64,000 nt of DNA from Candidatus Bathyarchaeia archaeon (lineage in GTDB: Archaea > Thermoproteota > Bathyarchaeia > Bathyarchaeales > Bathycorpusculaceae): NCBI GenBank assembly GCA_049515895.1, contig JBEKTQ010000020.1, positions 1 through 64,000 of the forward strand. The letters run 5' to 3'. The position numbers and the translations under genes were made by a program. Within the stretch, counting starts at the first letter, position 1, and the number at the start of each line of letters is the position of its first letter. The notes under the pieces are model-generated. The model saw only the letters and a program-made list of their open reading frames with translations, was not told the origin of the DNA and made no database searches. Of this stretch, positions 13,826-41,572 are shown one piece after another.

Positions 13826-15154
13826 TCATGGCTGTTGGATCGCTTTTAGAGTGTTTAGTGTATCCTCAAGGATGGTTAGTACACCGTTAAAGCCGATTAA
13901 CGGTCGAAAAGTCAAACTGACTTGATCATAGTAGGGGTATGTGAATGGGATGAAACCGAATTTAGCGTCAGGAACCCCTCTTGATACTCGATCTTCAACA
14001 TTGCTTCCATAAATCAGGTCAGGCTTCTTATCGGACAGTGCTTCGCGTATGTCGTATTGATCTGGGCTATAAAGTATGGTTGTATCTAAAGAGTTTTCAG
14101 CAATGTATTGGTTTAGCAGTTTCTGGTTCTCGGGTCCAACTTCTCTTAAGCCAATGACATCAGGGTACAACCCCAAGTACTTATGAAGGAAAGATATCAA
14201 CGGCACAGCTGTGGAGGAGTCACCAAAGTAGCCAAATCTTATACCTCGCAGACCACCCATCAAAACAGATATCCGGTCAAGTGTACGATAACACTTCATC
14301 TTCACCTTATTAGATTCCTCATTAATCATTGTTTTGGGCAAATTGAAAAAATCTGCAATCTTTCCGAACCAGATCTCAGAGGAAACGAAACCGTAAGGTG
14401 AAGACTCTTTAATGCCCATGTATGGGGTGCCATAGTCATGTTCAAGTTGCTGTGCTATTGTGTTGCCATATTCCTCGTATAGGACAACGTTGAGCTCGGC
14501 TCTATTTGCCATTTTAAGGTTCTCAAGGGTTTCTCCAGCGCATATTTTGGAGATGACTTTTATGCCTATTAGTTCAAGTGTTCTTTTGATTTCGGCAGTG
14601 TCGCTTTCCCAGTTGTACTGAAAAATGTTCGCTCCGATCAAGTTCACACTTTTGGGGATTTTTGGGCCATCATTTTCTATTACTGCTTTCAGTATTTCGT
14701 TCGATGCTCTCTTAAAGCCATCAACGAAGGTTCCCGTGAAACAGGAGCTTTCAATCGGAACGGTCTTGTATTTGGGAGAAGATTTTTTTAGGATAGCAAT
14801 GAGATCGTCCCCGATTAAAGAAGTTCCGGGAGAGTTAATTATGCCTACGAGGTCATAATCGAAATTTGATATCTGATTAATTGCGGTTGTAAGTTTTTCT
14901 TCTGCACTGTTAACATAATCATATTCATCCAGAAAGGTACTGGGCACTCGCTGAAAATAGATGTCAGTGAAATATTTATCCAATCCAAGCGGTGTAGTCT
15001 GGGCATCCTGTATTCCCGTAAGATAAGAAAGATAAGTTCTGCAGCCATTAGGACCATTAACTAACGCGGCGGAGTTCTTTATGCCTTCAAACGCTGTAAC
15101 CGCTCCAGCGAGAGAGTCAGGTCTATGCATTGAGATTGAAAAGTTTTCGGTCAT
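13826..15154 (-). CDS. Nitrogenase component-1-like subunit (group IV Nfl, NifK/D-like)
   Basis: RPDSLAGA, VNGPNGC, SPGTSLIGDD, VNLIG, IYGS, PLIGFNG; start taken at ATG 15154 (track start 15220). Confidence 0.85.
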   Translation of the reverse strand: MTENFSISMHRPDSLAGAVTAFEGIKNSAALVNGPNGCRTYLSYLTGIQDAQTTPLGLDKYFTDIYFQRVPSTFLDEYDYVNSAEEKLTTAINQISNFDYDLVGIINSPGTSLIGDDLIAILKKSSPKYKTVPIESSCFTGTFVDGFKRASNEILKAVIENDGPKIPKSVNLIGANIFQYNWESDTAEIKRTLELIGIKVISKICAGETLENLKMANRAELNVVLYEEYGNTIAQQLEHDYGTPYMGIKESSPYGFVSSEIWFGKIADFFNLPKTMINEESNKVKMKCYRTLDRISVLMGGLRGIRFGYFGDSSTAVPLISFLHKYLGLYPDVIGLREVGPENQKLLNQYIAENSLDTTILYSPDQYDIREALSDKKPDLIYGSNVEDRVSRGVPDAKFGFIPFTYPYYDQVSLTFRPLIGFNGVLTILEDTLNTLKAIQQP

Positions 15155-17345
15155 ATTTCCAGCCTTCACTAAAGGGTACTTTAAGTCTCGTTGTCCATTT
15201 GCGGACGTATTCCATTCCACTCAAGAAGCCGTAGGATGGACAGAACGGAAAGACATCGTGAATGATCTTGGTATTTGTCAGGTTTTTAGGCATGAAATTG
15301 TACAGAACTAGGTCTGGCTGATGTTCCAGAATGTCTTTTTCTCGGTTATCAAAAGGGTAATCGTTGACCACTTGCACTTTATCCGCAAATCGTGAGCAAA
15401 AGTTCTCGGTCTCATAATAAAATTTTGATACACACACCTTTTGCACGTTTGCATGCAGATCAAGCAGGGTCGCAATTAACCAGTCTATGTATATGACGAA
15501 GCCGAAGATCATTACTTTTTTAGCTTCCCAGAAGGGTTGGTAATGAGCGATCTGAGCATCATACTTAAGTCTGGCTTGATTGATTAACGTTTCAGCTTCG
15601 CTTTCCCGGTGGAACATCTTTCCCAATGCCCTTGTAAACTCTACTGTTTGCTCAAAAGCCAATGGAAGTGGAGCCTTCAAGTATGGAACGTTGAAATCCT
15701 TATCAAAGTAATCTAAAAGATTTTGAACAACTATTTCGTTGGTCGCGGGGATATTTACGGTTGCTAATTTAAAGTTCTTGATCGATTGCACAGTTGTTTT
15801 TCTGATGAACCTGCAGTTAATCGTGAGCTCGAGAGCGTTAAGAACGTTTGTTAATTCGTTAAAGTTCTTATCGGCAACCGTGGAAAGCCCTTGTTCACCG
15901 ATGATGTTTATCATGTCGCCGCTAGGAGTTAGGTTTCTGTTGATAAAATGTTCAGCAATAATTTTGTAAGAATTTTGGACACCCGCATTGAAGTCACCGC
16001 TCATAGCACCGTCGCTTTTAAGATCAACAACGTCCAAGCCTTCTTTTCGCAGCTGCTCAATTATGTGGGCTGAGTCTTCTCCGATTATGCCTGAGGGACA
16101 AGAAGTAATCACAAAGGTGACAGCTGGCGAGACACGTTTGTTCGCGTCCAAGATTACCTGTTTTAGTTTTTTTTCAGCGCCAAAGATCACTTCTTTCTCG
16201 CGCATATCGGTGCAAACTAGGTTCGGCAGGATCGTTTTTTCAGATGGTTGAGGAGTATTCAACGTGGTGTAAAAAGTATTGAATGCACAAGCTATAGGCG
16301 AATCCATAACGGCTACTGCATCCTCGATTTGGCTGACAACAGCATAAGCCCCAGCCAGTGAGCAGCCATAAAGAAGCGCCCTCGGTTTTAAGGAAGTAAC
16401 CTTTGCGCTGGCCCAATCAATACTGGTCTCTTTAGCATCTTTCACCGGATCGCATGTCTGGCAATCAGCCGTTTTCAAATTTTTTTTGACGCTATAGGTA
16501 TTGGGAAAATTTTTTCTTACGGGTTTTTTGCAGTAGCAGAATTCGCTGATGAAGTCTTCAAGCGCTGAATCCTCCATAGGCGTTGGAACAACAGGAGTCT
16601 TGTTTTGTTCGATTTTCTGGGCTAATGACCGATAAATTCCTGCCAACTCAGAGTTAGGCGCATATTCAATAACGGTTTGCGATTCAAGCTCAGCCTGTTG
16701 AACAATTTCGCTTCGAGGGATAAAAGCAACCATTTCTGTTCCGAGTTTTTGTGCAAAAGCCGCGATTAGTTCACGCTCTTTTTTGGTACCCCTTTCATTG
16801 CCGATTATGCCAGCCAGTTTGCCTTTGACTGAAGAATGACTTCTTAAGCCTTTAGCAATATTATTAGCAGCGTATAAGGAAGCTAATTCGCCTGAAGTTA
16901 CAATGTATATGGATTGAGCAAAACCTTCGCGCATGGGAACGGCAAAACCGCCACAAACCACATCGCCTAAAACATCAAAAAACACGTACTCAAAATCAGA
17001 CATGTTTAAACCTTGATTATTGAGCAGGTTAATCATCTGGATAATGCCTCTTCCGGCACAGCCAACACCAGGTTCTGGACCTCCGGCTTCAATGCATTTG
17101 GTGCCTTTGTACCCAGTTAACATAACATCAGCAAGTTTTACCGTATCAGAATGATTTAATTGTTCAAGAACAGTAGCTTGCTGAAAACCGCCTAGCAGTA
17201 ATCGTGTAGAATCATGCTTAGGGTCACAACCTATCTGCAGTACTTTGTATCCTTTCTCCGCTAAGGCAGCAGAAACATTTGAGATTGCAGTAGATTTTCC
17301 GATACCTCCTTTACCGTAGAAGGCAATTTTAACCATATCGCTCAT
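15123..17345 (-). CDS. NifH-like Fe protein fused to a nitrogenase component-1-like (NifD/E-like) domain
   Basis: YGKGGIGKS, GCDPKHDST, GPEPGVGCAGRG, DVLGDVVCGGFA; then YGCSLAGA, SPIAC, TSCPSGIIGED. Confidence 0.9.
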   Translation of the reverse strand: MSDMVKIAFYGKGGIGKSTAISNVSAALAEKGYKVLQIGCDPKHDSTRLLLGGFQQATVLEQLNHSDTVKLADVMLTGYKGTKCIEAGGPEPGVGCAGRGIIQMINLLNNQGLNMSDFEYVFFDVLGDVVCGGFAVPMREGFAQSIYIVTSGELASLYAANNIAKGLRSHSSVKGKLAGIIGNERGTKKERELIAAFAQKLGTEMVAFIPRSEIVQQAELESQTVIEYAPNSELAGIYRSLAQKIEQNKTPVVPTPMEDSALEDFISEFCYCKKPVRKNFPNTYSVKKNLKTADCQTCDPVKDAKETSIDWASAKVTSLKPRALLYGCSLAGAYAVVSQIEDAVAVMDSPIACAFNTFYTTLNTPQPSEKTILPNLVCTDMREKEVIFGAEKKLKQVILDANKRVSPAVTFVITSCPSGIIGEDSAHIIEQLRKEGLDVVDLKSDGAMSGDFNAGVQNSYKIIAEHFINRNLTPSGDMINIIGEQGLSTVADKNFNELTNVLNALELTINCRFIRKTTVQSIKNFKLATVNIPATNEIVVQNLLDYFDKDFNVPYLKAPLPLAFEQTVEFTRALGKMFHRESEAETLINQARLKYDAQIAHYQPFWEAKKVMIFGFVIYIDWLIATLLDLHANVQKVCVSKFYYETENFCSRFADKVQVVNDYPFDNREKDILEHQPDLVLYNFMPKNLTNTKIIHDVFPFCPSYGFLSGMEYVRKWTTRLKVPFSEGWKYDRKLFNLNA

Positions 17346-17408
17346 TCCTTTTCTCTGATTATTCTATGTTTGTGATATTGTGAACCTGAGGGCAACAGAC
17401 AGGGGGAA

Positions 17409-18596
17409 TTATGCAGGGCTGATTATTCTGCTCATCAATTCTGGAAAATCCAAAATGTTGTCAACAGTAACCATTTGACATCCTGAATCAGCCAGCAGTT
17501 TACTCCCGTCTTTATAATAATGTTCGAATGGTTTAAACCTGAGAAAGGTTATCCGAACATCCATATTCTGCATTTTAGTGATTTCGTCCAGTGATGCCTC
17601 GACATCTTCTGTTTCAAAGCCCATGTCAGAGAAAATTAGGCAAAAGTTGGCTTGATTACAACCTCCTTGACTGAATTCTGTTCTCGCCCATTTGACCGCT
17701 TGGTGAAGGTTTGTGCCTCCCGAAGACTCCATTGATAGTAGCTTATCAGTTATTTTCATTATGTCTTCTTTGACGCCAAATCTTTTGATTACATCAAGTT
17801 TATCTGAAAAAAGGGAAATAGCGCTTTGATCGTCTCTTGGCAAGCCATGTACAAGAATTGATCCACAGACCGCGCTGGAAACAAGTACTCGATAATCGAA
17901 ACTAGCGCTCATATCTTGAAGATATAAGACGTTTCTTCGTTGTCTTCTGACTTCCCGGGTAAGAAAGTCCTCGTACGAGAGCTGACGCAGGTCTTTTCCA
18001 TCGGCCATTGCGTTTTCCAGGGATAGCTCAAAATCAATTGCTGAAGAATCATCATTACCCGGCATGTACTGACGAACTGAGTAGCCTTTTTCCGGACCGG
18101 TACCGGAAACGTAGAAATTGTTAATGAAGTGGCGAGCATAATACATCCCTGTTTTAGCCAAAGCTTGTCTCGCTCTGGCTAACAAAGCCTTCTTTTCTTC
18201 TTCGTCGTACTCATCTCGATTTTTAAACCAATCATTGAGCACTTTTTCGTCGCCGTCCTTACCAGTTATGGCTTCGACTAGCTGAACTATTACATCCTTA
18301 AATTTTTCTTCACGTGTATAAGCGAGGTAACTATAAGTTTGAACTGCCAAGGATTCCGCTTCAGATCTTATTTCTATATGTGATGTGACAACTGCGGCTT
18401 CAACGTAATCTTGTTGGTTCAAAATACTCTTTTGTCTCATCTGCTTTGCCATTAATAGTTTTGCGATCGCAATTGGTTGCCGTGAGCTAGGTTTGAAAGC
18501 TTCAGGAATAATTTGTGAACTGCGAATTGCGCCGCAGAATTCGCCGGCAAACTCTACTGGATCAACATTTTTGCTTGAACTCAATTTTTCTCTCAC
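17409..18596 (-). CDS. VWA-domain protein with N-terminal AAA-lid-like repeat
   Basis: MIDAS DMSAS, GGTNL, FSDMG; start likely GTG 18596 (track start 18659). Confidence 0.85.
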   Translation of the reverse strand: MREKLSSSKNVDPVEFAGEFCGAIRSSQIIPEAFKPSSRQPIAIAKLLMAKQMRQKSILNQQDYVEAAVVTSHIEIRSEAESLAVQTYSYLAYTREEKFKDVIVQLVEAITGKDGDEKVLNDWFKNRDEYDEEEKKALLARARQALAKTGMYYARHFINNFYVSGTGPEKGYSVRQYMPGNDDSSAIDFELSLENAMADGKDLRQLSYEDFLTREVRRQRRNVLYLQDMSASFDYRVLVSSAVCGSILVHGLPRDDQSAISLFSDKLDVIKRFGVKEDIMKITDKLLSMESSGGTNLHQAVKWARTEFSQGGCNQANFCLIFSDMGFETEDVEASLDEITKMQNMDVRITFLRFKPFEHYYKDGSKLLADSGCQMVTVDNILDFPELMSRIISPA

Positions 18597-18597
18597 G

Positions 18598-18879
18598 TTA
18601 GTTAGATGTATTTTGTTTGGCCAATTTTCTAATGGTGTCTTTGGCAATTTCTTCTGCAATTTTTTGAACTCGGGGGTAGGATGTCACAACGGCAGCATCT
18701 ACAAAGTCAGCTTCGAGTAGCTCACGGTTTTTGATGTATTTTGCTGAAAGAAGCCTCGCAATTGCAATGGATTGTCTGGTGCTTGGAGCAGCAATTTCTT
18801 TAACTTTCTCGAGCTCACGAAAGCTCGCCACAAAATCTGCCGCGAATTGCCCAATTAAAGCATGTGTGTCTACTTGCAC
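18598..18879 (-). CDS. Small protein similar to the VWA protein N-terminus (AAA-lid-like)
   Basis: PSTRQSIAIARLL...DFVDAAVVTS versus PSSRQPIAIAKLL...DYVEAAVVTS. Confidence 0.7.
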   Translation of the reverse strand: MQVDTHALIGQFAADFVASFRELEKVKEIAAPSTRQSIAIARLLSAKYIKNRELLEADFVDAAVVTSYPRVQKIAEEIAKDTIRKLAKQNTSN

Positions 18880-19793
18880 GTTAAACTCTTCCTTATAAGA
18901 CCTTTGAGTTTATTTTCCTTCCATCGGGCATTACGTTCAGTTACGGATCCAAGAAGTGATTGATATGCGATGTCGACAAGAACAGAATCAGTTAGGAGAT
19001 CCATCTCGGCATAACGCGACGCTATTCGAGCAATCGAAATGCCAGTTCTTACAGAAACAAGCTTTGAGAATTCTTCGCTTTGCCTGGACTGATCAATAAT
19101 GTTGTAAATTTTCTGCATCGTCTCAGGATCAAGCTTGTTTTCGGGGGTGTTAGCGGCGATGATTTTGAGTTCAGTTTCTTTGGTAGGATATGATAAGCTT
19201 ATCCAAACATGAAGACGGTCCCTTAAAGCTTCAGAGATTCTGTGAGCACCAGAGAATTCGTAGGGATTGGCCACAGCTATGAAAACGAAGTTATCGTTTG
19301 CCCTAATTTTGCCAAGTCTGGGAATATACAGCGTCTTCTCTTCAAGAGGCTCCAAGAAACTATTTTGGCAAAACTCAGAGGCTCTGTTTAGTTCTTGTGC
19401 AACAAAAACTCCGCCGCCAACCATCGCAAGCAATAAAGGCCCGGGCTCGAATGCCTCCATACAGTAGCCTTTGCTAACCAGAACTGCAGGGTTAAAGGTC
19501 CCTATGAGATGACTTGGACTCATGAGTTCATCAAAAAATAATTCATAAAATGGACGCTGAGTATCATATGCGAATTTCCTAGCCAAAAGCGATTTGCCCA
19601 CACCGGGTGGACCAACAATTATTGGAGTTAGTCTTGCTGAAACTGCATCATCTAAAAGTTCATAAGCTTTCTTGTATTGCCCGTCTAAAACAATTTTTAC
19701 TTCAGAAGGTCTGGAAGCTATTTGGCGAGCAAATTGTTCTTTGAACTCTCTGGTGCTGTCGCATTGATTTTCTGTCAATCCATTTTCCCTCAT
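18870..19793 (-). CDS. MoxR-family AAA+ ATPase
   Basis: Walker A GPPGVGKS, Walker B-like VAQELNR, ANPYE, ALRDR. Confidence 0.9.
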   Translation of the reverse strand: MRENGLTENQCDSTREFKEQFARQIASRPSEVKIVLDGQYKKAYELLDDAVSARLTPIIVGPPGVGKSLLARKFAYDTQRPFYELFFDELMSPSHLIGTFNPAVLVSKGYCMEAFEPGPLLLAMVGGGVFVAQELNRASEFCQNSFLEPLEEKTLYIPRLGKIRANDNFVFIAVANPYEFSGAHRISEALRDRLHVWISLSYPTKETELKIIAANTPENKLDPETMQKIYNIIDQSRQSEEFSKLVSVRTGISIARIASRYAEMDLLTDSVLVDIAYQSLLGSVTERNARWKENKLKGLIRKSLTCK

Positions 19794-19826
19794 GTCTTTA
19801 CTATGTTTTTGTTCGTTGCAGTGTGT

Positions 19827-20075
19827 TTAGGGGTAAAGTTTCTTTTTAATTAGATAGCTTTGCGTTTTTTTAAGTATCTCGCCCTTATCGATTACGCATT
19901 TTTCTTTATCAGGGCAGCCGTCACATATTGTTGTATCAGTTGTCACCTCAAAAAGTCGCACACCGCTCATTGTTAATGAATTGTCTGAGGGTATTACGCT
20001 TGTGGCTATGTTAATGCCATAGCACATGTTGATTTCTTTGCCGTTTAAACCGTAGACTTTTCCAAGTTCTTTCAA
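19827..20075 (-). CDS. Hypothetical small Cys-containing protein
   Basis: In operon, RBS-like GGAGAAGAG upstream, CDGC-x5-C motif. Confidence 0.55.
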   Translation of the reverse strand: MKELGKVYGLNGKEINMCYGINIATSVIPSDNSLTMSGVRLFEVTTDTTICDGCPDKEKCVIDKGEILKKTQSYLIKKKLYP

Positions 20076-20124: not shown

Positions 20125-21798
20125 TTACCACGCTTTCTTCCATGGAGCAAACTCTAAATCGTCAAATCGAAATACTTTTGCAGGACAGGTCGACTCACAT
20201 TTTCTGCAAACTTGGCCAGTGCAGCTCTCACTAGATACTCGTATCAGATGTTGTCCACTGTTTTCTTCAACCCTGAGTGCCTGTGACATACAATTCTTTT
20301 CGCATATTCCACACCCTGTGCATCCTTCAAAAGTTGCATTCAAAATAATGCCGGCATGCTCGGTTATGTGTAAACCCTTTGGCCCAAAGTCCGCGATATC
20401 TCTGATAACTACTTTATGCACCTTAGCCTCGGTTCTTTGCTCAGGATAACTTGGAACCCTAAATCTCTTTGCAACAAACATTCTTTTTTCAGGCGTTAAA
20501 CCATGTTCCCAATGGTCCATTTCAATAATGTATGCTTTCTTGAAAGTTTCGTCTTGGATGAAGGCAAAATATGTTGGCTTCATTGAATCAGCCATTTCCT
20601 GCATTTTGTCAAGGCATTCTGGATCCACAGCGCAGTCGTTTGCCATAGCTAGGGAAGTGTTTCCAACTTGGTATATGTCGCTGACTGTAGGCAATGCTAG
20701 ACCCATTTTTTGCGCTTTCACAGCATCCACATATGTTCCGCTTGCCCCACAAAGATACATGGATTTAATGTCTTCGAATGCTACTCCGCTTTTCTCAACT
20801 AATGCTGTATGTCCAGCTTTGAAAGCGGCAAAGCAACGGGTCGAATTTAAGTAGTCTTTTGGTGTGAAAACAATGTTTTGGTTTTTAGTTATGTGAAGGC
20901 AATGATCTGGCGTCTTTATATATGGAGGTAAACGTTGTAGCAAACCAGAATCGAAGCCTGTAGCCATTGTTGCAATGGTTCCTGTCCCAGTTATTCCTCT
21001 TGGTTCAAAATAAGTCGAAAGTTTCTCTTGCACTTCGCCCGTCTGAGAATTTGCAGTGAAGCTGTCTTGAGAAATCATGTCGTCGTTAAGAACTTGCATT
21101 TTCCAGTTGCCATTTTCCAATAGTGTTATATCGGAAATCGCCCCAGGCGATGCTAAGACACCTTTGTCTATTTCGCCACCTTCAATGGCAGGCCCCGCTG
21201 CACATGAACCGGTATATAGTGTATCTCCGACTTTAAGTCCAATTTCAGCGTTTGTTCCGTAATCAGTGACCATACACGGCTTTTTTTGATCAAGAATTCC
21301 TGATTTGATGATCATTGCTAATGCGTCTGCGCCAATTTGCTGTTGAATAGTTGGAGGAATAAATACTTCAGCTTCAGGATTAATGGCTAAACCTAAGGAG
21401 CCGGCATCCATAACAGTAACTCTTCTATCGAGCCTTTTAACGCCAAGTCTCCGAAGCATATTGTCTCCGCCAAAAACTAGATCGCGAACTTCCATGCCTT
21501 GAAAAATTGACATTTGCGTTGGGTTTCCGCATAGAGCCATACGTTTTACAGCTTTAAGGTCAATTTCCAAAGAGTTTAGCAAAGTATTTATTGTGTCTGT
21601 AATGATGCCATGAGCTACCGCCGAGCCTGCTTTGACTGCAAAGTGCAGATGGTCAATAACATTACTTCCAGGAAGAGGATTATGCAGAGATATGGCTGTT
21701 GATATTATTTTCTTGGTCTCGGCATCCAGAGCTTGTAGCCGGACGCCGCTGGTTCCGATATCTAAGCCAATTACTAACTCCGTAATTATTCCCTTCAG
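20125..21798 (-). CDS. ramA: RamA-type ATP-dependent corrinoid protein reductive activase (ASKHA plus C-terminal 2x[4Fe-4S])
   Basis: GLDIGTSG and HNPLPGSNVIDHLHFA lie in frame upstream of the track start; DYGTNAE, AGPAIEG, CTGCGIC, C..C...CP; start is non-canonical (CTG 21798, ATA 21789 or ATT 21786). Confidence 0.85.
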   Translation of the reverse strand: MKGIITELVIGLDIGTSGVRLQALDAETKKIISTAISLHNPLPGSNVIDHLHFAVKAGSAVAHGIITDTINTLLNSLEIDLKAVKRMALCGNPTQMSIFQGMEVRDLVFGGDNMLRRLGVKRLDRRVTVMDAGSLGLAINPEAEVFIPPTIQQQIGADALAMIIKSGILDQKKPCMVTDYGTNAEIGLKVGDTLYTGSCAAGPAIEGGEIDKGVLASPGAISDITLLENGNWKMQVLNDDMISQDSFTANSQTGEVQEKLSTYFEPRGITGTGTIATMATGFDSGLLQRLPPYIKTPDHCLHITKNQNIVFTPKDYLNSTRCFAAFKAGHTALVEKSGVAFEDIKSMYLCGASGTYVDAVKAQKMGLALPTVSDIYQVGNTSLAMANDCAVDPECLDKMQEMADSMKPTYFAFIQDETFKKAYIIEMDHWEHGLTPEKRMFVAKRFRVPSYPEQRTEAKVHKVVIRDIADFGPKGLHITEHAGIILNATFEGCTGCGICEKNCMSQALRVEENSGQHLIRVSSESCTGQVCRKCESTCPAKVFRFDDLEFAPWKKAW

Positions 21799-22280
21799 TC
21801 CGGCTTGATTGTTACTTCCGTTTTCAATTCTATTTTTGTCCCTGCCTGCAGGGCGCGCAAGGCGAAACTGTATGACTTAACAAAGTTTCCGCAGCGAATG
21901 GCTTTCTCCTTGTTCGCTTCGCTATTTGTTGTAACGTAAATTATTGCATTAACATTGTCTAAGGAGTATCCGCCGACCATAGATGATTTAACTTCCGCCT
22001 CAATATTTACTTTTAAGTCGCTTATTTCAAGACGCATACGTTCTTTAGCGTACAAGAATGTAGTTAGAATGCAGCCGCCAAAGCCATTAAAGAAAATTGA
22101 ACAAGGACTTGGCAAATCTCCTTTTCCTCCAAATTCCGTGGGCTTATCCAGACTTAGAGTATATTTCAAGCCTTGAACAGAATCTCCGAAACGACAGTTT
22201 CCACCGGTTTTTTTGTCCCAAGCCACTTCTGCAAGATATTTTAAATCGCTCGGAACGGCACTTTGAATTTTAGCATTCAT
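21795..22280 (-). CDS. OsmC/Ohr-family protein
   Basis: DKPTEFGGKGDLPSP...GGCILTT; second conserved Cys position reads YSF. Confidence 0.8.
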   Translation of the reverse strand: MNAKIQSAVPSDLKYLAEVAWDKKTGGNCRFGDSVQGLKYTLSLDKPTEFGGKGDLPSPCSIFFNGFGGCILTTFLYAKERMRLEISDLKVNIEAEVKSSMVGGYSLDNVNAIIYVTTNSEANKEKAIRCGNFVKSYSFALRALQAGTKIELKTEVTIKPD

Positions 22281-25195: not shown

Positions 25196-25196
25196 T

Positions 25197-26581: not shown

Positions 26582-26583
26582 GA

Positions 26584-31067: not shown

Positions 31068-31214
31068 TCACAACTGTACGCAGCAATCATTACACAGTTT
31101 AACTATTGCGGCCTTTAACATTCTTTTCATCATTTCTTGACCGAAACTTAAGGTTGCGCCTAAACATCTTATTTTCAGTTTCTCATTGTCTTTAGAGTTA
31201 ATAGAGTGTAGTAA

Positions 31215-31228
31215 GTTGCAAAAGCTAC
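31215..31228 (-). promoter_or_regulatory. Island operator (GTTGCAAAAGCTAC on +) upstream of the lipoate ligase operon
   Basis: On the minus strand followed by 11 nt and then TATTAA (31203-31198). Confidence 0.75.
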
Positions 31229-31273
31229 AAACATGTTGAAACACACGCTAACCAAGTCACTCAGACATGCAGG

Positions 31274-32308: not shown

Positions 32309-32320
32309 AACATTAAGGGG

Positions 32321-33753: not shown

Positions 33754-34778
33754 TTTACACCGGCTCCTTTTGAAACGTTGACCTGTTTCTTTATCTCCCT
33801 CAACTCTTCCTCTGAAGGAAGGACAGGAAAATTATAAATCTTCTTTTCAGGAGTCTCATTAGCGAATGGCCGGTTGCAGTCAGGACATCCTGATGTAAGG
33901 AAAGGTTCACCGTGAGCGATTGTCTTCTCCACCTCTTCTTTGGCTATTCCGAAATCTTTGATTTCGCCAGATTCGTTGAATAGCATTTTTTCTGCTCGAG
34001 TTAGATTTTGGTAAATTAGGTAGTTAGCTAATTTTATCCGTCGATAACTCTCAATTGACGGAGGCTGACCGCCCGCCAACCGTGTGCCGGCAATAGGGGT
34101 GAAAGCGAAAAGCGCACTGTAAACACCCTCATCGTTAAGTTTCGCCAATAAATCCACTGCTTCATGCTCAGTTTCGCCTAAGCCCACCATCAAATGTGTG
34201 CCGACGTTGCCTTTGCCCATTATTTCGACCGCGTCGTGTATCGCTTTAAGGTGGCTTTCCCATCTGTAAGGACCTGCAGCCTTAGCGCCTTTAATATCAT
34301 CAAATATTTCTTCGTTCGCCGCATCCAGAGGAATTATTATTTTTTGAACACCACTGTCCCTTAGACGCTTAATCTGCTCCGCCGGAACTGAAAAAATAGA
34401 GACTGATATTGGCGCGGCAACCTCGGCATTCAATCTGTTGACCACCCAGAGCAATTCGTTCATGAGGTTAGAATAATTCAGGGTTTGGATGCATATCCGT
34501 TTAATGAATTTGCGTTTAGCCGCTTTTTTCAGCCGAGTGATTACCAATTCCGCATCGTATGGCAAGTACAGCCCCCTTGCGATCTTGTCAACCTTAGCTT
34601 CAGAAGTTTTCGCTTGAGCACAAAACTTGCAGTTGGCGGCACATCTGCCAGGGTAGTAAGTCTGTAAATACGCTGTAGTTGGAGCATTATCGCGATTCAT
34701 AAAAGCCATTTCAAGCCCTAAAATAACTGCAGTACCGATGGAAACACGTATTTTTTTAACAGGTTGATTGAGTGTCAC
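33750..34778 (-). CDS. lipS2: Radical SAM protein, LipS2-type lipoyl synthase subunit
   Basis: CAANCKFCAQ and the TSGCPDCNRP signature. Confidence 0.88.
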   Translation of the reverse strand: MTLNQPVKKIRVSIGTAVILGLEMAFMNRDNAPTTAYLQTYYPGRCAANCKFCAQAKTSEAKVDKIARGLYLPYDAELVITRLKKAAKRKFIKRICIQTLNYSNLMNELLWVVNRLNAEVAAPISVSIFSVPAEQIKRLRDSGVQKIIIPLDAANEEIFDDIKGAKAAGPYRWESHLKAIHDAVEIMGKGNVGTHLMVGLGETEHEAVDLLAKLNDEGVYSALFAFTPIAGTRLAGGQPPSIESYRRIKLANYLIYQNLTRAEKMLFNESGEIKDFGIAKEEVEKTIAHGEPFLTSGCPDCNRPFANETPEKKIYNFPVLPSEEELREIKKQVNVSKGAGVK

Positions 34779-34781
34779 TTC

Positions 34782-35819
34782 TCAGGGTTCCTCCGTTGAT
34801 GTTAGTCTAAGATAAGACGCGGGGGGCACTGCACAACACACGGCATAGGATTCAGTCGTCAACCCAATAGACTCCGATTGCTTGAGAGCAAAGTCAGACG
34901 GGGTTGCAATGCTCGTTACACCTGCTTGAATTGCCAGTTTCTCAATAAGTGCCCTGTCAGCTCCTTTAGACCTTGCGCACCCTAAAGTTATGGGAACGTT
35001 AGGAAACATCAACCGAGAGACTGAAACAACCTTGGCAACATCATAAGGGTTCACAGTTACTTTTTCCAACGGAGTACCTCTCAGCGGCATTAGCGCAGTT
35101 ATTACAACCGTTGTGGGTTTGATGCCGGAGATTATTTCTAGAGATGTTAATTCATGTTTAAGGTTGCCAAAATTGAGCCCAACGCAAACATGTGGAGATA
35201 TTATCGGTATTTTGGCCTTTTCGAGAGCTTTCAGAGTTCTGGTGTAGGTTTTGGGTTTTATTTCGATTCCGTAGACAGCTTTTGTCGTTTCGGGTGAACC
35301 AACAACATCTACGGCGGCGCCATCTAATCCAGTTGACGCCAATTTTTCTGCTTCTTGAAAATCCACAATTCCAGTGTGGGCGATTACTATGAGATTAGTC
35401 TTCTTCTTAACTGAAGATATAGCATCTAAGAAGTTGCCAAGGGGAACCTTGCCGCTTGGCAGACAGCCCCCAGTGATTAGAACGCCTTTAGCGCCTTTCT
35501 TTGCTAGTTTTTCACAAATTTCTACGAGTTTTGTAGGAGATGGAGCAGCCGTCAAGTTTTGCAGGAGTTTGGTCTGGCAGTGTTTACATCTTAAAGCACA
35601 TTCGCTGCCGGTCACGGATAATGCGGGGAAGTATCGTGATGTATAGTAGAAGTTGATTTTTCGACCCATCTGCTTATCAGACAGGGCTCTTGTGGTTGCC
35701 GATAGAGACAATATTTGGGTTGCGTCCTTTAGCTCTAAGAGTTCTTTTGCTTCGTGAATGGATATTGCCTTGTTCTCGAACCCTTTTTCTCGTAACTCCG
35801 TAAATTTGTTTGTTAACAC
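34782..35819 (-). CDS. lipS1: Radical SAM protein, LipS1-type lipoyl synthase subunit
   Basis: SVTGSECALRCKHC, LGCAR, C-terminal CC. Confidence 0.85.
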   Translation of the reverse strand: MLTNKFTELREKGFENKAISIHEAKELLELKDATQILSLSATTRALSDKQMGRKINFYYTSRYFPALSVTGSECALRCKHCQTKLLQNLTAAPSPTKLVEICEKLAKKGAKGVLITGGCLPSGKVPLGNFLDAISSVKKKTNLIVIAHTGIVDFQEAEKLASTGLDGAAVDVVGSPETTKAVYGIEIKPKTYTRTLKALEKAKIPIISPHVCVGLNFGNLKHELTSLEIISGIKPTTVVITALMPLRGTPLEKVTVNPYDVAKVVSVSRLMFPNVPITLGCARSKGADRALIEKLAIQAGVTSIATPSDFALKQSESIGLTTESYAVCCAVPPASYLRLTSTEEP

Positions 35820-36644
35820 TTACGCACCATCTACGTTGTCATAAGGCATGAGTTTGTCGGTTTTGATGTCCATGTTATAGGTCCATTCTTTTGATGCGAA
35901 CTTCGGTTCTAGACTTTTGATTAGTTCGGTTTCTTTTCTGGTGAGTGTTTCATATTTTATTTCGGTGTTTAGCACTTTTTCGAAGCCTGACTTTATTGTT
36001 TTCTTGACTTCGGACAGTTCGATTCTTCTCGATAGTTCTCTGTTGATGCAGGTCAAACCTTCTTCGATTGAATTTATTCCGGGCTTCAAATTCTTGAATG
36101 GATTCCTAAAAACTTTCGACATTGTTTCAAAGTCAAAGTCGACGAGTAGACTGCCACCCACTATTTGAGCGCCGGTTAGGCCAGTAGAGGAATTTCCGGA
36201 TACTTTCTTCCCGTTAATCCAAATTGCGTTGTTGTAGTCCGACACCAAAGTAACGTCGTTGAAACCAAGGTCTCGCAGACCCTGCAAGACTCCACGGAGA
36301 GCGTAGTTATACATTCTTTGAATAATTGATGAAATTGGCGCAATAGGGTGGTCAGTGCCGATAACAATGTCATATAGAAGCTGGTTTTTGTCAACATATC
36401 CTGTTCCGCCACCGAGGATTCGGCGAACGATACTTACGCCCAATTTCTCGCATACGTCTGCATAAACCTCTTCTTTCACAAGTTGAAAATAGCCCAAGCA
36501 GACAAACGGCTTCGTCGGTCTCCAGAAAATAATTGTGTTAGGAACCAGATTCCTTGATCGGGCAATGCCAACTGCTTCTACAGTAGCAACTCCGGTCACT
36601 GGATCCACTAAATCTGTATCTATGAGCCTCCATTGTTCAACCGT
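35820..36644 (-). CDS. Lipoate ligase/octanoyltransferase catalytic domain only
   Basis: LGYFQ, RRILGGGT, GKKVSG; conserved EQWRLID lies upstream of the track start and is preceded by an ACG codon at 36644. Confidence 0.85.
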   Translation of the reverse strand, partial: TVEQWRLIDTDLVDPVTGVATVEAVGIARSRNLVPNTIIFWRPTKPFVCLGYFQLVKEEVYADVCEKLGVSIVRRILGGGTGYVDKNQLLYDIVIGTDHPIAPISSIIQRMYNYALRGVLQGLRDLGFNDVTLVSDYNNAIWINGKKVSGNSSTGLTGAQIVGGSLLVDFDFETMSKVFRNPFKNLKPGINSIEEGLTCINRELSRRIELSEVKKTIKSGFEKVLNTEIKYETLTRKETELIKSLEPKFASKEWTYNMDIKTDKLMPYDNVDGA

Positions 36645-36948
36645 TTACGATTCCTCGTCAATGTTCTTTCTTAACTTATTTCATTGCCAAATAATAATCG
36701 TTATTAAGTACACCTGGCTAGCGCACGCAGAGGCTAAGGACGCGAACCTAACTAATAAATTCCAGTTAATAACAAAGAGAACAAACCGAAACTGAGCAAT
36801 TAATTGCGTTTTAGGATTTATGAAGCTTAGACACTGCACGAAACCCTAATGTTGGCTAAAAGTGACATTGAAAATGCAAATTCTATTGTGCAAACCTAGA
36901 GAAAAATAAAAAGTTTGGGCGCGATTGTACACGCGCTTTTTGATGTTT

Positions 36949-38220
36949 TTAGGCTTGAAGTGGGTATTTGAAGACTTCAAGTATTGTCTTGACTGCAAAT
37001 TCGATTGCAGGTAGCGGAATTGTTGGATCTCCAGTGGGAACTGATACGTAGGTTCTGTGGCCTTGAGTTGGATATTTCATAAATAGTTTTGCGTGCCTTG
37101 TAAAGTCGTTTCGGATAGCGTTTTGGTAGTCTGGGGAGAACATCGCTACGTTGTCAAATGCATCGTGAGCCCAAATGTTGTCGTATTTGCGGGTGTTGTT
37201 ATACCATTCGTCGACGTTTGGATGTTCACTGAAGCCTAGCATTCCTCCGCCGCCGTTTTCACTGAGGCACTTTGCAATTGGCACGTGCGCGGTCATTGGT
37301 CCTTCAGGGATTACTTCAGGTTGCCATCCTTTCTTTGCACAGTATTTTATGGCATCGGTATAGGTTATGTCGAAGACTTTTGCAAATTCTTCGCCCGTTA
37401 GGTAGCTTGTTGAGTCGCACCAGGTTATCCAGTTGCCTTCTCCGGTGTCATCTATTTGTTGTCCAAGTATTTCGGTTTGTTTGTCAATCTTCTTTTTCAG
37501 AAGAGCGGTTGTACCTTTGAGGCATAACTCAGCCAATTCCATGTTCTTTCGAATATCCATAACGAAATCTTTGATACCTCTTAGGAAACCAGCCATAGTT
37601 ATTGGACCGCCACAGCAAGATGCTACTATAGGCATCTCTGGCACTAGTTTCATGAGTGCTTTGACTTCCCAGAAGTATATTGGCCAAGTTCCAGCTCTTA
37701 GTGCAGGCTCAGGAACGTTGTCTAAGAAGAATAGTGCATCTTCTTTGGTTCTGACAAATGGCTCTACGGCGAGCGGTGGACCGTTTTCGATGAATCTGAA
37801 TTTTCTTGTTACAAGCTCTTCTCCGAATCCATAGTTGTACAGCCAATTCATGTCGGTAGTGCTTGCAAATTTTGCATACCACAGCATTTGCCCTATTGCG
37901 TCCAAGTTAGGATGATTAATCATGTCTTTTGTGAAGAGTATCGATGGTGGATCCGCGAAGCCATCAAATATTCGTGTCATGGTTTGATGCAGTCCACTGC
38001 AGTGACTGGGTAACCGGTCCAGTGGTTCATTAGTGAATAGAGCTTTGGCCCATCTTTGGCGAGGCATCATTTGTTCTTCTTTCTTGGTGTCAAGCCACTT
38101 TGCTTTTGCTTTCTCCAGCATAACCTCTTCCGTAGCAGTAAATTGGTAACTGAACGGCCCTTTGTTCCACCACAATGGATAATCGCGGTTGACTTCTTCA
38201 GAATTCCATTCTATATTCAT
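36949..38220 (-). CDS. UroD/MtaA-superfamily corrinoid-dependent methyltransferase
   Basis: MMPRQRW...EPLDRLP, GPITMAGFLRG..F..D; abuts the corrinoid gene; no HxC zinc motif seen. Confidence 0.8.
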   Translation of the reverse strand: MNIEWNSEEVNRDYPLWWNKGPFSYQFTATEEVMLEKAKAKWLDTKKEEQMMPRQRWAKALFTNEPLDRLPSHCSGLHQTMTRIFDGFADPPSILFTKDMINHPNLDAIGQMLWYAKFASTTDMNWLYNYGFGEELVTRKFRFIENGPPLAVEPFVRTKEDALFFLDNVPEPALRAGTWPIYFWEVKALMKLVPEMPIVASCCGGPITMAGFLRGIKDFVMDIRKNMELAELCLKGTTALLKKKIDKQTEILGQQIDDTGEGNWITWCDSTSYLTGEEFAKVFDITYTDAIKYCAKKGWQPEVIPEGPMTAHVPIAKCLSENGGGGMLGFSEHPNVDEWYNNTRKYDNIWAHDAFDNVAMFSPDYQNAIRNDFTRHAKLFMKYPTQGHRTYVSVPTGDPTIPLPAIEFAVKTILEVFKYPLQA

Positions 38221-38933
38221 TACTTCACCCCCTTCTTAAGTCTCTCTTCTTTAAGTACTCGCATTAGTTCATCAGTTTTTTTAACCGCGTCAACCATGTC
38301 TGCGCCCCAACCGTCTAAGCCATATGTAGGTACGTCAGTTTCGAAGGTTGATTGTCCGCCTGCAACTACTTTCACGTTGTCTCGAATTCCTAATTTCTGC
38401 AATTCTTTGACGACTTTAGGCATTGATGTTTTGCACATAGACATAGAGCAGCTGATTCCGACTATGTCTGCTTTCGATCTTTTTGCTTCTATCGCAAAGT
38501 TTTTGGCTGGAACGTCTAAGCCAATATCGTTGATAACATATCCAGCTGATTCGTACATTGTTGAAACGAGGCTTTTTCCAATATCATGTACGTCGCCCTC
38601 AATAGTTCCCAAGACTATCTTTCCCGGAAGCTCGGCCTTCTTTGCACCAGCTAACAATAGAGGTTTTAAGATGCTTGTGCTTTTTACGAGGCATTCGCCT
38701 ATCACAATCAGATCTGATAAAAGTAAGGCTTCGCTTTCGGAAACATTACTTACTCCTTCTGTTCCGCCAGCCCACCAGCTTTTCGAAGTAAGCTCTTTTG
38801 CATATCCCACAATTTTGTTTAGCAAATCAAAAGGTTCGGCGCCAGCATCCAAAGCTTTTTGGGTTAATTCTCCAAACTTATCTGGATCTTGTGCCTTAAG
38901 AGTTTCTTTAAGCTCAGTATATATTGCTTCCAA
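38220..38933 (-). CDS. Methyltransferase corrinoid (B12-binding) protein
   Basis: GTIEGDVHDIGK (DxHxxG), DIGLDVP, VGIS, VVAGG. Confidence 0.95.
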   Translation of the reverse strand: MEAIYTELKETLKAQDPDKFGELTQKALDAGAEPFDLLNKIVGYAKELTSKSWWAGGTEGVSNVSESEALLLSDLIVIGECLVKSTSILKPLLLAGAKKAELPGKIVLGTIEGDVHDIGKSLVSTMYESAGYVINDIGLDVPAKNFAIEAKRSKADIVGISCSMSMCKTSMPKVVKELQKLGIRDNVKVVAGGQSTFETDVPTYGLDGWGADMVDAVKKTDELMRVLKEERLKKGVK

Positions 38934-38991
38934 ATGTTTACCTCCGACGTCTGAACCGAATTAATCAAAAAAACCTTATAGCTTGTAGGTA

Positions 38992-39005
38992 GTTGCAAAA
39001 GTAAC
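38992..39005 (-). promoter_or_regulatory. Island operator GTTGCAAAAGTAAC between the corrinoid gene and the divergent TrmB gene
   Basis: Near-palindrome; on the minus strand 11 nt before TATAAGG (38980-38974). Confidence 0.8.
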
Positions 39006-39112
39006 CACCATCTATGTTACAGATCATAAAAAATTTTGATTCTACAATGGTTGTGGATTACCAAAAAGATCATATATATTATAATTTGATAAGAAGAGGA
39101 TGAGGAATTAGA

Positions 39113-39931
39113 TTGAGCCAGAATCTGATATTGGCGAAACTAATTGAGTTGGGATTTACAGATCAAGAAGCACGAATATACATATTGTTAGCAAAAACAG
39201 GAACTCTAAAGGCGAAAGACATTTCGAGAACTTTAAAAATAAACAAAGTCCAAGTTTACCGTAGCCTGAGAAACCTTCAGAACAGAGATTTTGTTGAATC
39301 ATCGCTTGGGTGCCCGGCGTTTTTTTCTGCAACGCCATTTGACAAGCTAATAGACCTCGTGGCGGAATCTAAAAGTTCAGAGGCCATGTTGCTCAAAAGC
39401 AACAAAGGAGCATTGCTATCCCTGCTGGGAAGAATGGAACAGCTGACGCCAAATGAAATGGACAAGTTTACGGTCGTGGAAAACGCTAATACGATTTACT
39501 CATTAATCGATCAGTTTTTTAAGAAAGCCCAAAAAGAAATCGTGGTAATGGTTGATGATGCATACAAGGCAGTACCGAATTTTGACGAGAATCATCGCAT
39601 AACAAAAGCTAACCTCAAACGAGGAGTCAAATATAGATGCATTGGCAAAGATAACGAGCAAAATCATGAGTCTACAAAAAGAATCATGAACGATGGATGG
39701 ATCTTAAGAAATTTTGAGAATAGATACAGTAAAATAATTAATAACAACTTTCCGTGCTTTTTCATGAGAGACGAAAAAGAGCTAATACTATCAATGGAAA
39801 AAGACGCTTTCGGATACATCAAGAAAATAATGATCACTAACAACCAAGCACTAATCAGTCTAGTAAAACTGTTCTTTGAAAAAACATGGTGTGACTCAGA
39901 AATTTCAGAAATTGCCAAACTATCACTCTAA
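39113..39931 (+). CDS. TrmB-family transcriptional regulator
   Basis: LGFTDQEARIY..L.KTG.LKAKDIS..LKINKVQVYRSL; RDEKELIL..FFEKTW. Confidence 0.88.
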   Translation: MSQNLILAKLIELGFTDQEARIYILLAKTGTLKAKDISRTLKINKVQVYRSLRNLQNRDFVESSLGCPAFFSATPFDKLIDLVAESKSSEAMLLKSNKGALLSLLGRMEQLTPNEMDKFTVVENANTIYSLIDQFFKKAQKEIVVMVDDAYKAVPNFDENHRITKANLKRGVKYRCIGKDNEQNHESTKRIMNDGWILRNFENRYSKIINNNFPCFFMRDEKELILSMEKDAFGYIKKIMITNNQALISLVKLFFEKTWCDSEISEIAKLSL

Positions 39932-40233: not shown

Positions 40234-40584
40234 TTGTCAACTCAAGAAAAAGCTGATGAACTGATAAAAACTCTGACAGATAGAGTAAATGCAAAACCCG
40301 ATGGGTCAAAAGGCTGGGGCGGAGCCATAATCATTAATTTCACAAATGCTGAAGAAGTTTATTTTCTGAAATTCGGCATGGACGGCAAAGTCGAAAAAGT
40401 TGATAAAGGATACCTTAAAGTAATGCAGAAAAAAGGCCCTAAAGCTACAATCAACACTACAACCGACACCGTAGACGCCATATACAGTGGAATGATTGAT
40501 GGAATGGGGGCAATGATGAGCGGCGCAATAAAAGTCGACGGCCCGTTAGATGTCGTGATGAAGCTGGCGCCCGCATTTATGTAG
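40234..40584 (+). CDS. SCP2 sterol/lipid-binding domain protein
   Basis: G.IDG..AMMSG.IKVDG...VMKL C-terminal SCP2 pattern. Confidence 0.8.
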   Translation: MSTQEKADELIKTLTDRVNAKPDGSKGWGGAIIINFTNAEEVYFLKFGMDGKVEKVDKGYLKVMQKKGPKATINTTTDTVDAIYSGMIDGMGAMMSGAIKVDGPLDVVMKLAPAFM

Positions 40585-41025: not shown

Positions 41026-41508
41026 CTAGAGACCCTTGTATTCTCCACCTGTTATATCGTCCTTTGATTTTTCTGCTTCTTTCTTGAACCAATCTACAGC
41101 AGCGTCGCCGAAGAATATGTTCTTTAACTCGGCCTCGAGGTTGGATGGCTTTATAATACATAGCCACCCTGCTCCATATGGATCATCTTTAAACGCGTTT
41201 GCTCCTCGTTTTCGAACTTCTTCGTTTACAGAAATAATTGTCCCAGACACTGGAGCAACAATCGGTCCGGTATACTTTATTGACTCTAATATCCCAAGCT
41301 TCTTTTTCTGAATTAACACTGTTCCAGTTGGCATCAACTTTACCATGAAGATTTTTACAGCGCCTCTAGCTACAATGTCATCAAAGCCTACACGGACATT
41401 TCCGTCATTCTCTTTTTTAGCCCAAACATGCTCATTATAGTATAAGTCTGGTCGAAACTTGAAACCGAAAACTTCTTCCACAGACATCAATCTAACCTCA
41501 TTTCGCAT
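41026..41508 (-). CDS. gcvH: Second GcvH-like lipoyl carrier protein
   Basis: YYNEHVW, LESIKY (lipoyl Lys), DPYGAGWL. Confidence 0.9.
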   Translation of the reverse strand: MRNEVRLMSVEEVFGFKFRPDLYYNEHVWAKKENDGNVRVGFDDIVARGAVKIFMVKLMPTGTVLIQKKKLGILESIKYTGPIVAPVSGTIISVNEEVRKRGANAFKDDPYGAGWLCIIKPSNLEAELKNIFFGDAAVDWFKKEAEKSKDDITGGEYKGL

Positions 41509-41558
41509 TCGTTTACAATTTTAGAAAGAGCGTGTTTTGTCCTTATATAAAGTGGTCA

Positions 41559-41572
41559 ATTGCAAAAGTAAC
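41559..41572 (-). promoter_or_regulatory. Island operator (ATTGCAAAAGTAAC on +) upstream of the second gcvH
   Basis: On the minus strand 11 nt before TATAAGG (41547-41541). Confidence 0.75.

Follow-up and report, generated by a model that had tools for sequence, protein, structure and literature searches.

The stretch of DNA described here, hereafter the window, comprises 64,000 nucleotides (nt; positions 1 to 64,000 of contig JBEKTQ010000020.1, assembly GCA_049515895.1) of a Candidatus Bathyarchaeia archaeon, and contains at positions 13826-41572 an island of genes for corrinoid-dependent methyl transfer, protein-bound lipoate and an HdrABC-MvhADG complex. The results support the view that these three modules form one conserved, co-regulated unit. 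A first-pass annotation, made from the letters of the window, had proposed such a unit, and the proposal is borne out by a shared promoter module, an identical distribution of the methyltransferase and the activase RamA among related genomes, conserved gene order in three genera, and the proximity of a lipoyl H-protein gene to most of the methyltransferase genes. The corrinoid-lipoyl-Hdr system is undescribed, and points to a thiol-based methyl or redox pathway. The reading that we favour, our belief and doubt in it being about equal, is a conserved corrinoid-dependent methyl-transfer regulon with protein-bound lipoate as the thiol or redox partner. The analysed genome (G000; 3.18 Mb, 53 contigs, 100% complete, 4.9% contamination) was compared with a sample of 301 genomes of the class Bathyarchaeia, this genome included, and a sample of 401 genomes of the order. 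Gene calls in the island were checked with Pfam and NCBIfam, and every gene that the first-pass annotation had listed was found in place on the minus strand, which holds nearly all large open reading frames (ORFs) of the island (Table 1).

A repeat search identified a ~35-nt module in four intergenic regions, those of hdrA, lplA1, cop/trmB and gcvHb, in which a dyad-like core, CTTTTGCAA, lies at a fixed distance from a TATA-like box. In other genomes, orthologues of these genes were found to be preceded by the same module. As a hand-written regular expression failed to recover known operator sites, a weight matrix was used instead, trained only on seven sites in three other genomes (G467, G543 and G560) and scanned over 6,364,452 positions of G000. 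The four island sites were recovered as the best matches (Table 1), and the next best position genome-wide scored 16.8 bits. The first-pass statement that the operons of the island share one operator thus holds for these four promoters, with a weak fifth operator-like site before lplA2, but not for ramA, moxR or nfl, directly before which the matrix scan found no site. From hdrA to the NifK-like gene, the genes form an unbroken same-strand array with gaps of at most 63 nt. The TrmB-family regulator of the island is a candidate binder of the shared operator. An operator-like 11-mer upstream of a ComA homologue on contig C15 was attributed to chance; it lacks the fixed TATA spacing and is not among the 12 best matrix matches listed.

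The 423-amino-acid methyltransferase of the island (MT423) was found in five of the 401 genomes of the order (G000, G465, G467, G543 and G560), and RamA in exactly the same five, whereas MT423 occurs in none of the 300 other genomes of the class sample. DUF8155 occurs in 100 of the 301 class-sample genomes and in none of the 48 sampled members of the window's own family, but in all four other MT423 genomes of the order sample. These five genomes contain 12 full-length MT423 genes, a frameshifted copy in G467 being excluded at less than 80% coverage. A corrinoid protein (CoP) gene lies within 500 nt of 10 of the 12, and genes for a lipoyl H-protein of the GcvHb type (9/12), an SCP2-fold protein (10/12) and a TrmB-family regulator (10/12) lie within 3 kb. 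Each such cassette contains one methyltransferase, and several paralogous cassettes exist.

The genomic contexts extend this association beyond the cassettes. In G465, the whole island is repeated at 84-98% identity, together with three further cassettes. G543, which belongs to another genus and is 79% complete, carries MvhAGD-HdrBCA, a 232-amino-acid protein, LplA1, LipS1a, GcvHa, a DUF8155 protein, LipS2, LipS1b and LplA2, followed by MT423, TrmB, CoP, GcvHb and SCP2; identity to the window proteins is 54-89%, except for TrmB (26%) and SCP2 (37%), and RamA and the MoxR/VWA block are located on a second contig. Within 40 kb, G560, of a third genus, contains the lipoylation genes, the MoxR/VWA block, RamA, a cassette, GcvHb, OsmC and several Hdr/Mvh genes. 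TrmB and SCP2 of G543 aside, the homologues in G543 and G560 share 39-89% identity with the window proteins. In G467, the lipoylation operon and Hdr-Mvh are fused, and several cassettes and a locus of OsmC, RamA and Hdr are also present. The gene order of the lipoylation operon is identical in these four genomes, and the group of LplA1, the 232-amino-acid protein and DUF6951 is kept beside lipoylation or Hdr genes in all of them. The block of an 82-amino-acid protein, MoxR, a 93-amino-acid protein and a VWA protein is kept in all five genomes, and has its own operator copy in G560. Two short metagenome contigs carry CoP-MT423-SCP2-LplA2-LipS1b at 55% identity. Thus, the corrinoid, lipoyl and Hdr-Mvh modules recur together in three genera, whereas the nitrogenase-like pair (Nfl), which the first-pass annotation had placed in the same pathway, is linked to them in one genus only. 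The class sample had first suggested that the island is a species-specific mosaic, an idea overturned by the order-wide contexts for all components but Nfl. Overall, a few soil Bathyarchaeia of one family carry a conserved accessory regulon.

In G467 (a single contig of 3.05 Mb, 88% complete), homologues of MT423, LplA, LipS1, GcvHa, HdrA, NflHD and DUF8155 are split by frameshifts or stop codons (loci L063-L068 and L075-L078). Co-decay of the system in this genome was considered and not adopted, as the frameshifts may be assembly errors.

Methyltransferase, lipoyl proteins and Hdr-Mvh complex

MT423 has no Pfam match, URO-D included, and matches an MtaA-type NCBIfam model only weakly (E-value 1e-3). 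A structure model built from 11 relatives (predicted local distance difference test score, pLDDT, 82.4) was found by Foldseek to match best the Methanosarcina mazei methyltransferase 4ay7_A (E-value 8e-9, target-normalised template modelling score 0.76, 17% identity), with uroporphyrinogen decarboxylase structures ranking after it. A profile of the MT423 family (15 members) retrieved 81 proteins at an E-value of at most 1e-3, and 17 at an E-value of at most 1e-30, among 1.84 billion representatives. Eight of ten distant relatives match URO-D at an E-value of at most 0.01, seven of them above the cut-off. On the basis of this profile yield, the fold match and the URO-D matches of its distant relatives, MT423 probably founds a new branch of the UroD superfamily, one with very few members. 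The first-pass label of UroD-family methyltransferase therefore stands by predicted fold and transitive sequence links, but not by a direct Pfam match. Cys203 and Cys268 are invariant in the family alignment (15 sequences). CoP contains a cobalamin-binding motif, and scored 116.6 bits against the NCBIfam model for cognate corrinoid proteins, under its cut-off.

Ahead of its first ATG/GTG/TTG, the RamA frame stays open for a further 98 codons (21583-21876, minus strand), and the ASKHA motif GLDIGTSG is encoded in this stretch, before any canonical start codon. Judged from the reading frame, RamA must therefore be translated either from a non-canonical start codon or by coupling to osmC. G465, G467 and G560 likewise have the long open frame.

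Parts of further cassettes were observed in G000. A C-terminal fragment of MT423, 42% identical to residues 303-423 (the last 120 residues), sits between a thermosome gene and the NifK-like gene, and looks like the remnant of a lost cassette; G467 has a full cassette at a similar position, close to a thermosome gene and Nfl. Contig C45 (5.9 kb) carries a second TrmB-MT423-CoP cassette at 38-43% identity, and contig C12, at 80-86 kb, carries a fourth GcvH, 60% identical to GcvHb. Both have transposase genes on their flanks, which suggests that the cassettes are mobile.

The two H-proteins of the island differ in type. GcvHb represents a distinct type of lipoyl H-protein, whose 10 aligned members share the motif ES(R/I/T)KYTGPI with an invariant lysine. 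The first-pass annotation had described the lipoyl lysine as intact, and indeed all four GcvH copies encoded in the genome have it. The GcvH cut-off (117 bits) is exceeded by the contig C2 copy alone (147.8 bits). GcvHa and GcvHb share the GCV_H fold and the lipoyl lysine with the H-protein of glycine cleavage, but no match to GcvP (GDC-P), GcvT (GCV_T) or E2 was found in the whole genome, so that no glycine-cleavage or E2 partner job appears to be available to these H-proteins. Because a second LipS1, a second LipS2 and another LplA are encoded elsewhere in the genome, the lipoylation set of the island is an extra, dedicated one. The 232-amino-acid protein encoded beside LplA1 is without a known family, and its stored structure model is poor (pLDDT 0.31).

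The Hdr-Mvh genes of the island are a second, island-specific copy, the other copies of the genome being located on contigs C8 and C21. HdrB contains 10 cysteines, with two CCG/CxxC sets intact; HdrB, HdrA and VhuA score below the NCBIfam equivalog cut-offs. Identity between the island proteins and the other copies is 82% for MvhA and 73% for MvhG, but 47% for HdrB and 37% for HdrC. Such a diverged HdrB on a conserved hydrogenase would fit a different disulfide substrate for the island Hdr.

The nitrogenase-like pair

Nfl consists of a NifH-NifD fusion and a NifD/K-like partner (NflK). A full-length fusion was found in 7 of the 301 sampled Bathyarchaeia, this genome included, and a copy 94% identical to it occurs in a metagenome-assembled genome of Candidatus Bathyarchaeota. 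Nfl is linked to the system only in G000 and G465, where it is part of the same-strand array that the hdrA promoter heads, and in G467, where it lies beside MoxR/VWA and cassettes. In G560, it is unlinked to the system and adjoins an ABC importer, and in G543 (79% complete) it was not found. In five genomes of the same genus (47-50% identity), the Nfl pair follows three conserved genes, and the stretches examined around the pair in these genomes yielded no match to other island proteins. In G172, the one genome of the five checked with Pfam, the upstream genes encode a periplasmic-binding protein, FecCD and an ABC ATPase, as in a Fec/Btu-type importer. In a genome of a different family (G081; contig C1, ~678-686 kb, L020-L021), the Nfl pair follows genes for HdrC-like and CCG-domain proteins and faces an HdrA-MvhD fusion, an arrangement that is an independent Nfl-Hdr association.

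Both cluster cysteines are kept in the H domain of the fusion. The best solved relative of the D domain is MarD of Rhodospirillum rubrum (9FMG, 9D9U), with 80.8 bits versus 62 for NifD. However, Cys270 of MarD, the catalytic L-type cluster ligand, was found to align with Thr in NflD, and likewise in the comparison with 9p1x_A. The best genome match to NifB/MarB (TIGR01290) reached 18.3 bits against a cut-off of 343.65, in a genome that is 100% complete. At the P-cluster positions, the D domain keeps C353, C378 and C416, while NflK keeps one of three, C60, the others being Ser or Pro (nine sequences). NifEN has the same 3+1 cysteine pattern as COR. In COR, this pattern goes with a single bridging [4Fe-4S] cluster (PMC13474568). 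The pattern in Nfl would likewise imply one bridging [4Fe-4S] cluster, with neither a P-cluster nor an L-cluster expected.

Nfl therefore resembles MAR (group IV-C), COR, NifEN and CfbCD in having a NifH-type ATPase and a D/K-type component (PMC13474568), but differs from MAR in the fusion of H and D, the lack of the cofactor cysteine, the failure to find NifB, and the predicted lack of the P-cluster and L-cluster of MAR. The first-pass annotation had assigned to Nfl a MAR-type cleavage of C-S bonds, which is not supported, given the replacement of Cys270, the lack of a NifB match, the single P-cluster cysteine of NflK, the importer context, the failure to find Nfl in G543 and its unlinked position in G560. 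Judged by residues and gene context, Nfl is an accessory, genus-specific add-on outside the core, rather than a C-S lyase of the MAR type. A tetrapyrrole or metal chelate may be the substrate of Nfl, and would fit the importer context and the cluster type better than a thioether.

Proposed mechanism, related systems and alternatives

Under the reading of a methyl-transfer regulon with lipoate as the thiol or redox partner, RamA would hold the corrinoid protein in the Co(I) state, and MT423 would shuttle methyl between a thiol or thioether and the corrinoid. The dihydrolipoyl arm of GcvHb would serve MT423 as the thiol partner, and SCP2 could hand over a hydrophobic substrate. The island HdrABC-MvhADG would reduce the lipoyl disulfide of GcvHa or GcvHb with H2, and would co-reduce ferredoxin for RamA and, where present, NflH. 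Both the methylation of lipoyl-GcvH and its recycling by Hdr are postulated steps of this scheme. The regulon offers a concrete candidate for the Hdr disulfide, as the extra Hdr-Mvh copy, with its diverged HdrB, is under joint control with two dedicated lipoyl H-proteins that are served by a lipoylation set of their own. In addition, a new UroD-fold branch fixed beside a lipoyl protein hints at methyl-thiol chemistry on a protein-bound cofactor. All components are small and soluble, so that the key steps are open to reconstitution in vitro.

The sHdr subunit set is HdrC1B1A-hyp-HdrC2B2, without a hydrogenase; unlike this set, the island has a single HdrACB set followed by MvhDGA. In sulfur oxidisers, sHdr works with the lipoate-binding protein LbpA (PMC6067878). 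The island resembles this pairing in its Hdr-type complex beside GcvH-like lipoate-binding proteins and in its private LplA-LipS1-LipS2 set (PMC6067878; PMC10332631), but its HdrABC is of the methanogen type and comes with MvhADG hydrogenase, and RamA and a corrinoid methyltransferase accompany the set. The sHdr system is accompanied by the sulfur transferases DsrE, TusA and rhodanese (10.1101/2023.12.18.572138), families for which no Pfam match was found among the island ORFs. The six subunits of the island complex, their usual order and the intact HdrB cysteine motifs are those of methanogen HdrABC-MvhADG. Unlike in methanogens, the complex is co-regulated with lipoyl proteins and not with the metabolism of coenzyme M (CoM) and coenzyme B (CoB), and the absence of MCR from the window, as given in the first-pass annotation, extends to the whole genome (100% complete), in which McrA has no match. 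HdrABC-MvhADG is widely distributed among non-methanogenic archaea in which neither CoM nor CoB is made. In Culexarchaeia, the disulfide substrate of Hdr has been stated as unknown, and the lipoyl group of GcvH in the Ehe-HdrA2B2C2-GcvH cluster was proposed to carry the disulfide for HdrB as an alternative (PMC9723716). That cluster is similar in that a non-methanogenic TACK archaeon has a GcvH gene within an Hdr/hydrogenase cluster, but it contains a membrane-bound group 4 hydrogenase, SdhA and CdhA, and a corrinoid methyltransferase, lipoylation operon and shared operator are not reported in the portion of the paper that describes it (PMC9723716).

The corrinoid part of the island resembles the soluble CoM methyltransferase systems (MtaA/MtaC) and type 1 mlp clusters in its UroD-fold methyltransferase, cognate corrinoid protein and RamA-type activase. 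Among the soluble CoM methyltransferases, MtsA/MtsB is the methylthiol system. Unlike in these systems, MT423 lies far outside the group, and each cassette has one methyltransferase, with SCP2 and a lipoyl H-protein as its fixed companions. A type 1 mlp cluster contains at least the Mlp2 and Mlp3 paralogues, a corrinoid protein and Ram (Kountz and Balskus; PMC10418091), and some mlp clusters are described as lying near MarHDK-like genes (PMC10418091). MtgB of Bathyarchaeia is a different methyltransferase of ~300 amino acids (PMC10989822). The idea of GcvH as a partner of Hdr and that of MtaA-like enzymes with nitrogenase-like proteins are each in print separately, and we found no publication in which corrinoid methyl transfer and lipoyl proteins are combined with Hdr-Mvh.

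Several observations weigh against lipoate as the thiol partner. The first-pass annotation had noted no E3, GcvP or GcvT; none occurs in the window, and GcvP and GcvT are missing genome-wide, but the genome does encode an E3 (dihydrolipoyl dehydrogenase) on contig C2 (616.2 bits, cut-off 592), and a gene for a flavoprotein resembling coenzyme A (CoA) disulfide reductase adjoins the canonical GcvH on the same contig, so that lipoyl redox cycling need not involve Hdr. Lipoamide, given its low redox potential, is ill suited as a high-potential acceptor in H2-driven bifurcation. A separate GcvHb comes with each paralogous cassette, an unexpected arrangement if the carrier is shared. Two MtrH genes and one CdhC are present, and the methyl group could pass directly to tetrahydromethanopterin without a thiol carrier. 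Given two homologues of ComA (phosphosulfolactate synthase; C15, 20482-21231, and C16, 45703-46392), a CoM-like thiol is conceivable; the homologue on C15 adjoins genes for a flavin mononucleotide (FMN) dehydrogenase-rubredoxin fusion and SdhAB-like proteins. The zinc site of MT423 is putative, being deduced from two invariant cysteines, and the five MT423 genomes are kin, so that their co-occurrence counts are not independent. A stronger form of the lipoate reading, in which the lipoyl H-protein replaces both CoM and CoB, its arm being S-methylated by the corrinoid/MtaA-type system and its intramolecular disulfide being the physiological substrate of HdrABC-MvhADG, is in our view improbable. 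If true, it would be the equivalent of the methyl-thiol and heterodisulfide cycle on a protein-bound carrier, free of CoM and CoB, and would provide the first identified Hdr substrate in a non-methanogenic archaeon.

The first-pass annotation had gone further still, in that lipoyl-GcvH would be methylated via the corrinoid, Nfl would cleave the S-methyl group with release of methane or an alkane, and Hdr would re-reduce the disulfide, resulting in MCR-independent methyl reduction. The gene set does mirror H2-dependent methyl-reducing methanogenesis without MCR, and the closeness of NflD to MarD and the position of Nfl behind the hdrA promoter, or by MoxR/VWA and cassettes, agree with such a role. 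Yet nitrogenase-type reductases use ATP for each electron, a poor basis for catabolism, and the genomes in which Nfl was not found (G543, 79% complete), is unlinked or is accompanied by an importer without other island genes, together with the Thr at the position of Cys270, the missing NifB and the incomplete P-cluster cysteines of NflK, make the full scheme extremely unlikely; the release of methane or an alkane is unsupported. A different use of lipoate would be redox protection, with H2 electrons passing via Mvh/Hdr to lipoyl-GcvH and on to an OsmC/Ohr-type peroxidase that guards or re-reduces the oxygen-sensitive corrinoid system, lipoate being a reductant only and never a methyl carrier. 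Ohr/OsmC enzymes are lipoyl-dependent peroxidases, the OsmC-like gene is kept beside Hdr, RamA or GcvHb in G000, G465, G467 and G560, and a ferritin/rubrerythrin-like gene is located nearby. We consider redox protection an unlikely explanation, as it accounts neither for GcvHb within 9 of 12 cop-MT423 cassettes nor for the exact phyletic match of RamA and MT423, and OsmC falls below all NCBIfam cut-offs.

Salvage, in which MT423 and CoP would demethylate thioethers or selenoethers to free sulfur or selenium, with Nfl, Hdr and lipoate as helpers or reductants only, has in our estimate a similarly small chance of being correct. Clusters of MtaA-like, corrinoid and Ram proteins, often with MarHDK-like genes, have been proposed for methyl-sulfur or methyl-selenium metabolism (PMC10418091), MT423 has the predicted MtaA fold and conserved cysteines, and the top NCBIfam match of OsmC, under its cut-off, is 'OsmC-related (seleno)protein'. 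Type 1 clusters, however, need at least two Mlp paralogues that are ~30% identical to CoM methyltransferases, whereas each cassette here has one very divergent methyltransferase; lipoate does not appear in the searched text of PMC10418091 (0 occurrences of 'lipo'), and several cassettes with a bifurcating hydrogenase complex suggest a flux beyond the needs of salvage. It is also conceivable that independent lipoate, Hdr-Mvh, corrinoid methyltransferase and Nfl modules were joined by rearrangement and share no pathway. Transposases and the methyltransferase fragment flank parts of the system, and gene order varies among genomes. Moreover, in 20 DUF8155 loci from other families, no match to the window Hdr, Mvh, Nfl, RamA or MT423 proteins was found within 10 kb, one of the loci having a weak match to CoP (28% identity). 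Such a chance juxtaposition is opposed by an operator that is kept in three genera and confined, within this genome, to these promoters, by the identical distributions of MT423 and RamA, and by a linkage of the modules that persists through rearrangements, all of which leaves it still less probable than salvage or redox protection.

Feature coordinates, flanking genes and minor observations

Table 1. Features of the window and, in the last row, of contig C2 of the same genome (aa, amino acids; scores in bits)
Feature	Position	Strand	Match, score or remark
MT423 C-terminal fragment	13352-13711	+
NflK, NifD/K-like partner	13826-15220	-
NifH-NifD fusion, 740 aa	15123-17345	-
82-aa Cys-rich protein, MoxR AAA+, 93-aa protein, VWA protein	17409-20075	-	MoxR 18870-19793; VWA 17409-18659
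RamA corrinoid reductive activase	20125-21582; open frame to 21876	-	TIGR04270 499.4, cut-off 500
OsmC/Ohr-fold protein	21795-22280	-	Pfam OsmC
HdrA-HdrC-HdrB-MvhD-MvhG-MvhA	22309-28617	-	Pfam, NCBIfam
MvhA, MvhG, MvhD	22309-25195	-
HdrB, HdrC, HdrA	25197-28617	-
Promoter module, hdrA copy	28672-28707	-	37.5, rank 3
LplA1 (with C-terminal domain), 232-aa protein, DUF6951	28979-31067	-	LplA1 itself 29997-31067
Promoter module, lplA1 copy	31197-31232	-	37.7, rank 2
Lipoylation operon: LplA2 (short), LipS1b, LipS2, DUF8155, GcvHa, LipS1a	31274-36608	-
LipS1a	31274-32308	-	257.8, cut-off 230
GcvHa	32321-32776	-	Pfam GCV_H; 115.7, cut-off 117
DUF8155 protein, 326 aa	lipoylation operon, between GcvHa and LipS2	-
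LipS2	33750-34778	-	312.5, cut-off 270
LipS1b (second LipS1)	34782-35819	-	221.0, slightly under cut-off 230
LplA2, short LplA	35820-36608	-
Weak operator-like site before lplA2	36751-36786		14.9
MT423, divergent UroD/MtaA-fold methyltransferase, 423 aa	36949-38220	-	predicted fold and transitive sequence links
CoP, MtaC/MtbC-like corrinoid protein	38220-38933	-	Pfam B12-binding; motif DVHDIG
Promoter module, cop/trmB copy	38974-39009	-	38.0, rank 1
TrmB-family regulator, divergent from cop	39113-39931	+	Pfam TrmB
SCP2-fold small protein, cassette member	40234-40584	+	Pfam SCP2
GcvHb, distinct lipoyl H-protein type	41026-41508	-	Pfam GCV_H; 84.9, cut-off 117
Promoter module, gcvHb copy	41541-41576	-	28.7, rank 4
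Ferritin/rubrerythrin-like gene, near island	43405-44385
E3; canonical GcvH with CoA-disulfide-reductase-like gene	contig C2, 49627-50976 and 131814-133591

The island is flanked on one side by thermosome genes (Pfam), and on the other by genes for DUF996, a ferritin-like protein, 2-oxoacid:ferredoxin oxidoreductase and NrdR/D/G. A lead from OsmC to selenoprotein or organometallic operons was dropped, as OsmC is not mentioned in the portion of the Haft preprint drawn on here. The 93-amino-acid ORF of the MoxR/VWA block (18598-18879, minus strand) shares 41% identity with the VWA protein over residues 36-113 of the latter, a small internal duplication, and is kept as a separate gene in all five genomes. 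An IS66-family transposase fragment adjoins the thermosome pair (8291-9088, plus strand), and G465 has a second HdrB-HdrC-HdrA-MvhD set there instead. The window contains two DUF6951 paralogues (10919-11257, plus strand, and 28979-29305, minus strand; 38% identity), one of which adjoins a thermosome gene, an adjacency also observed in G465 and G543.

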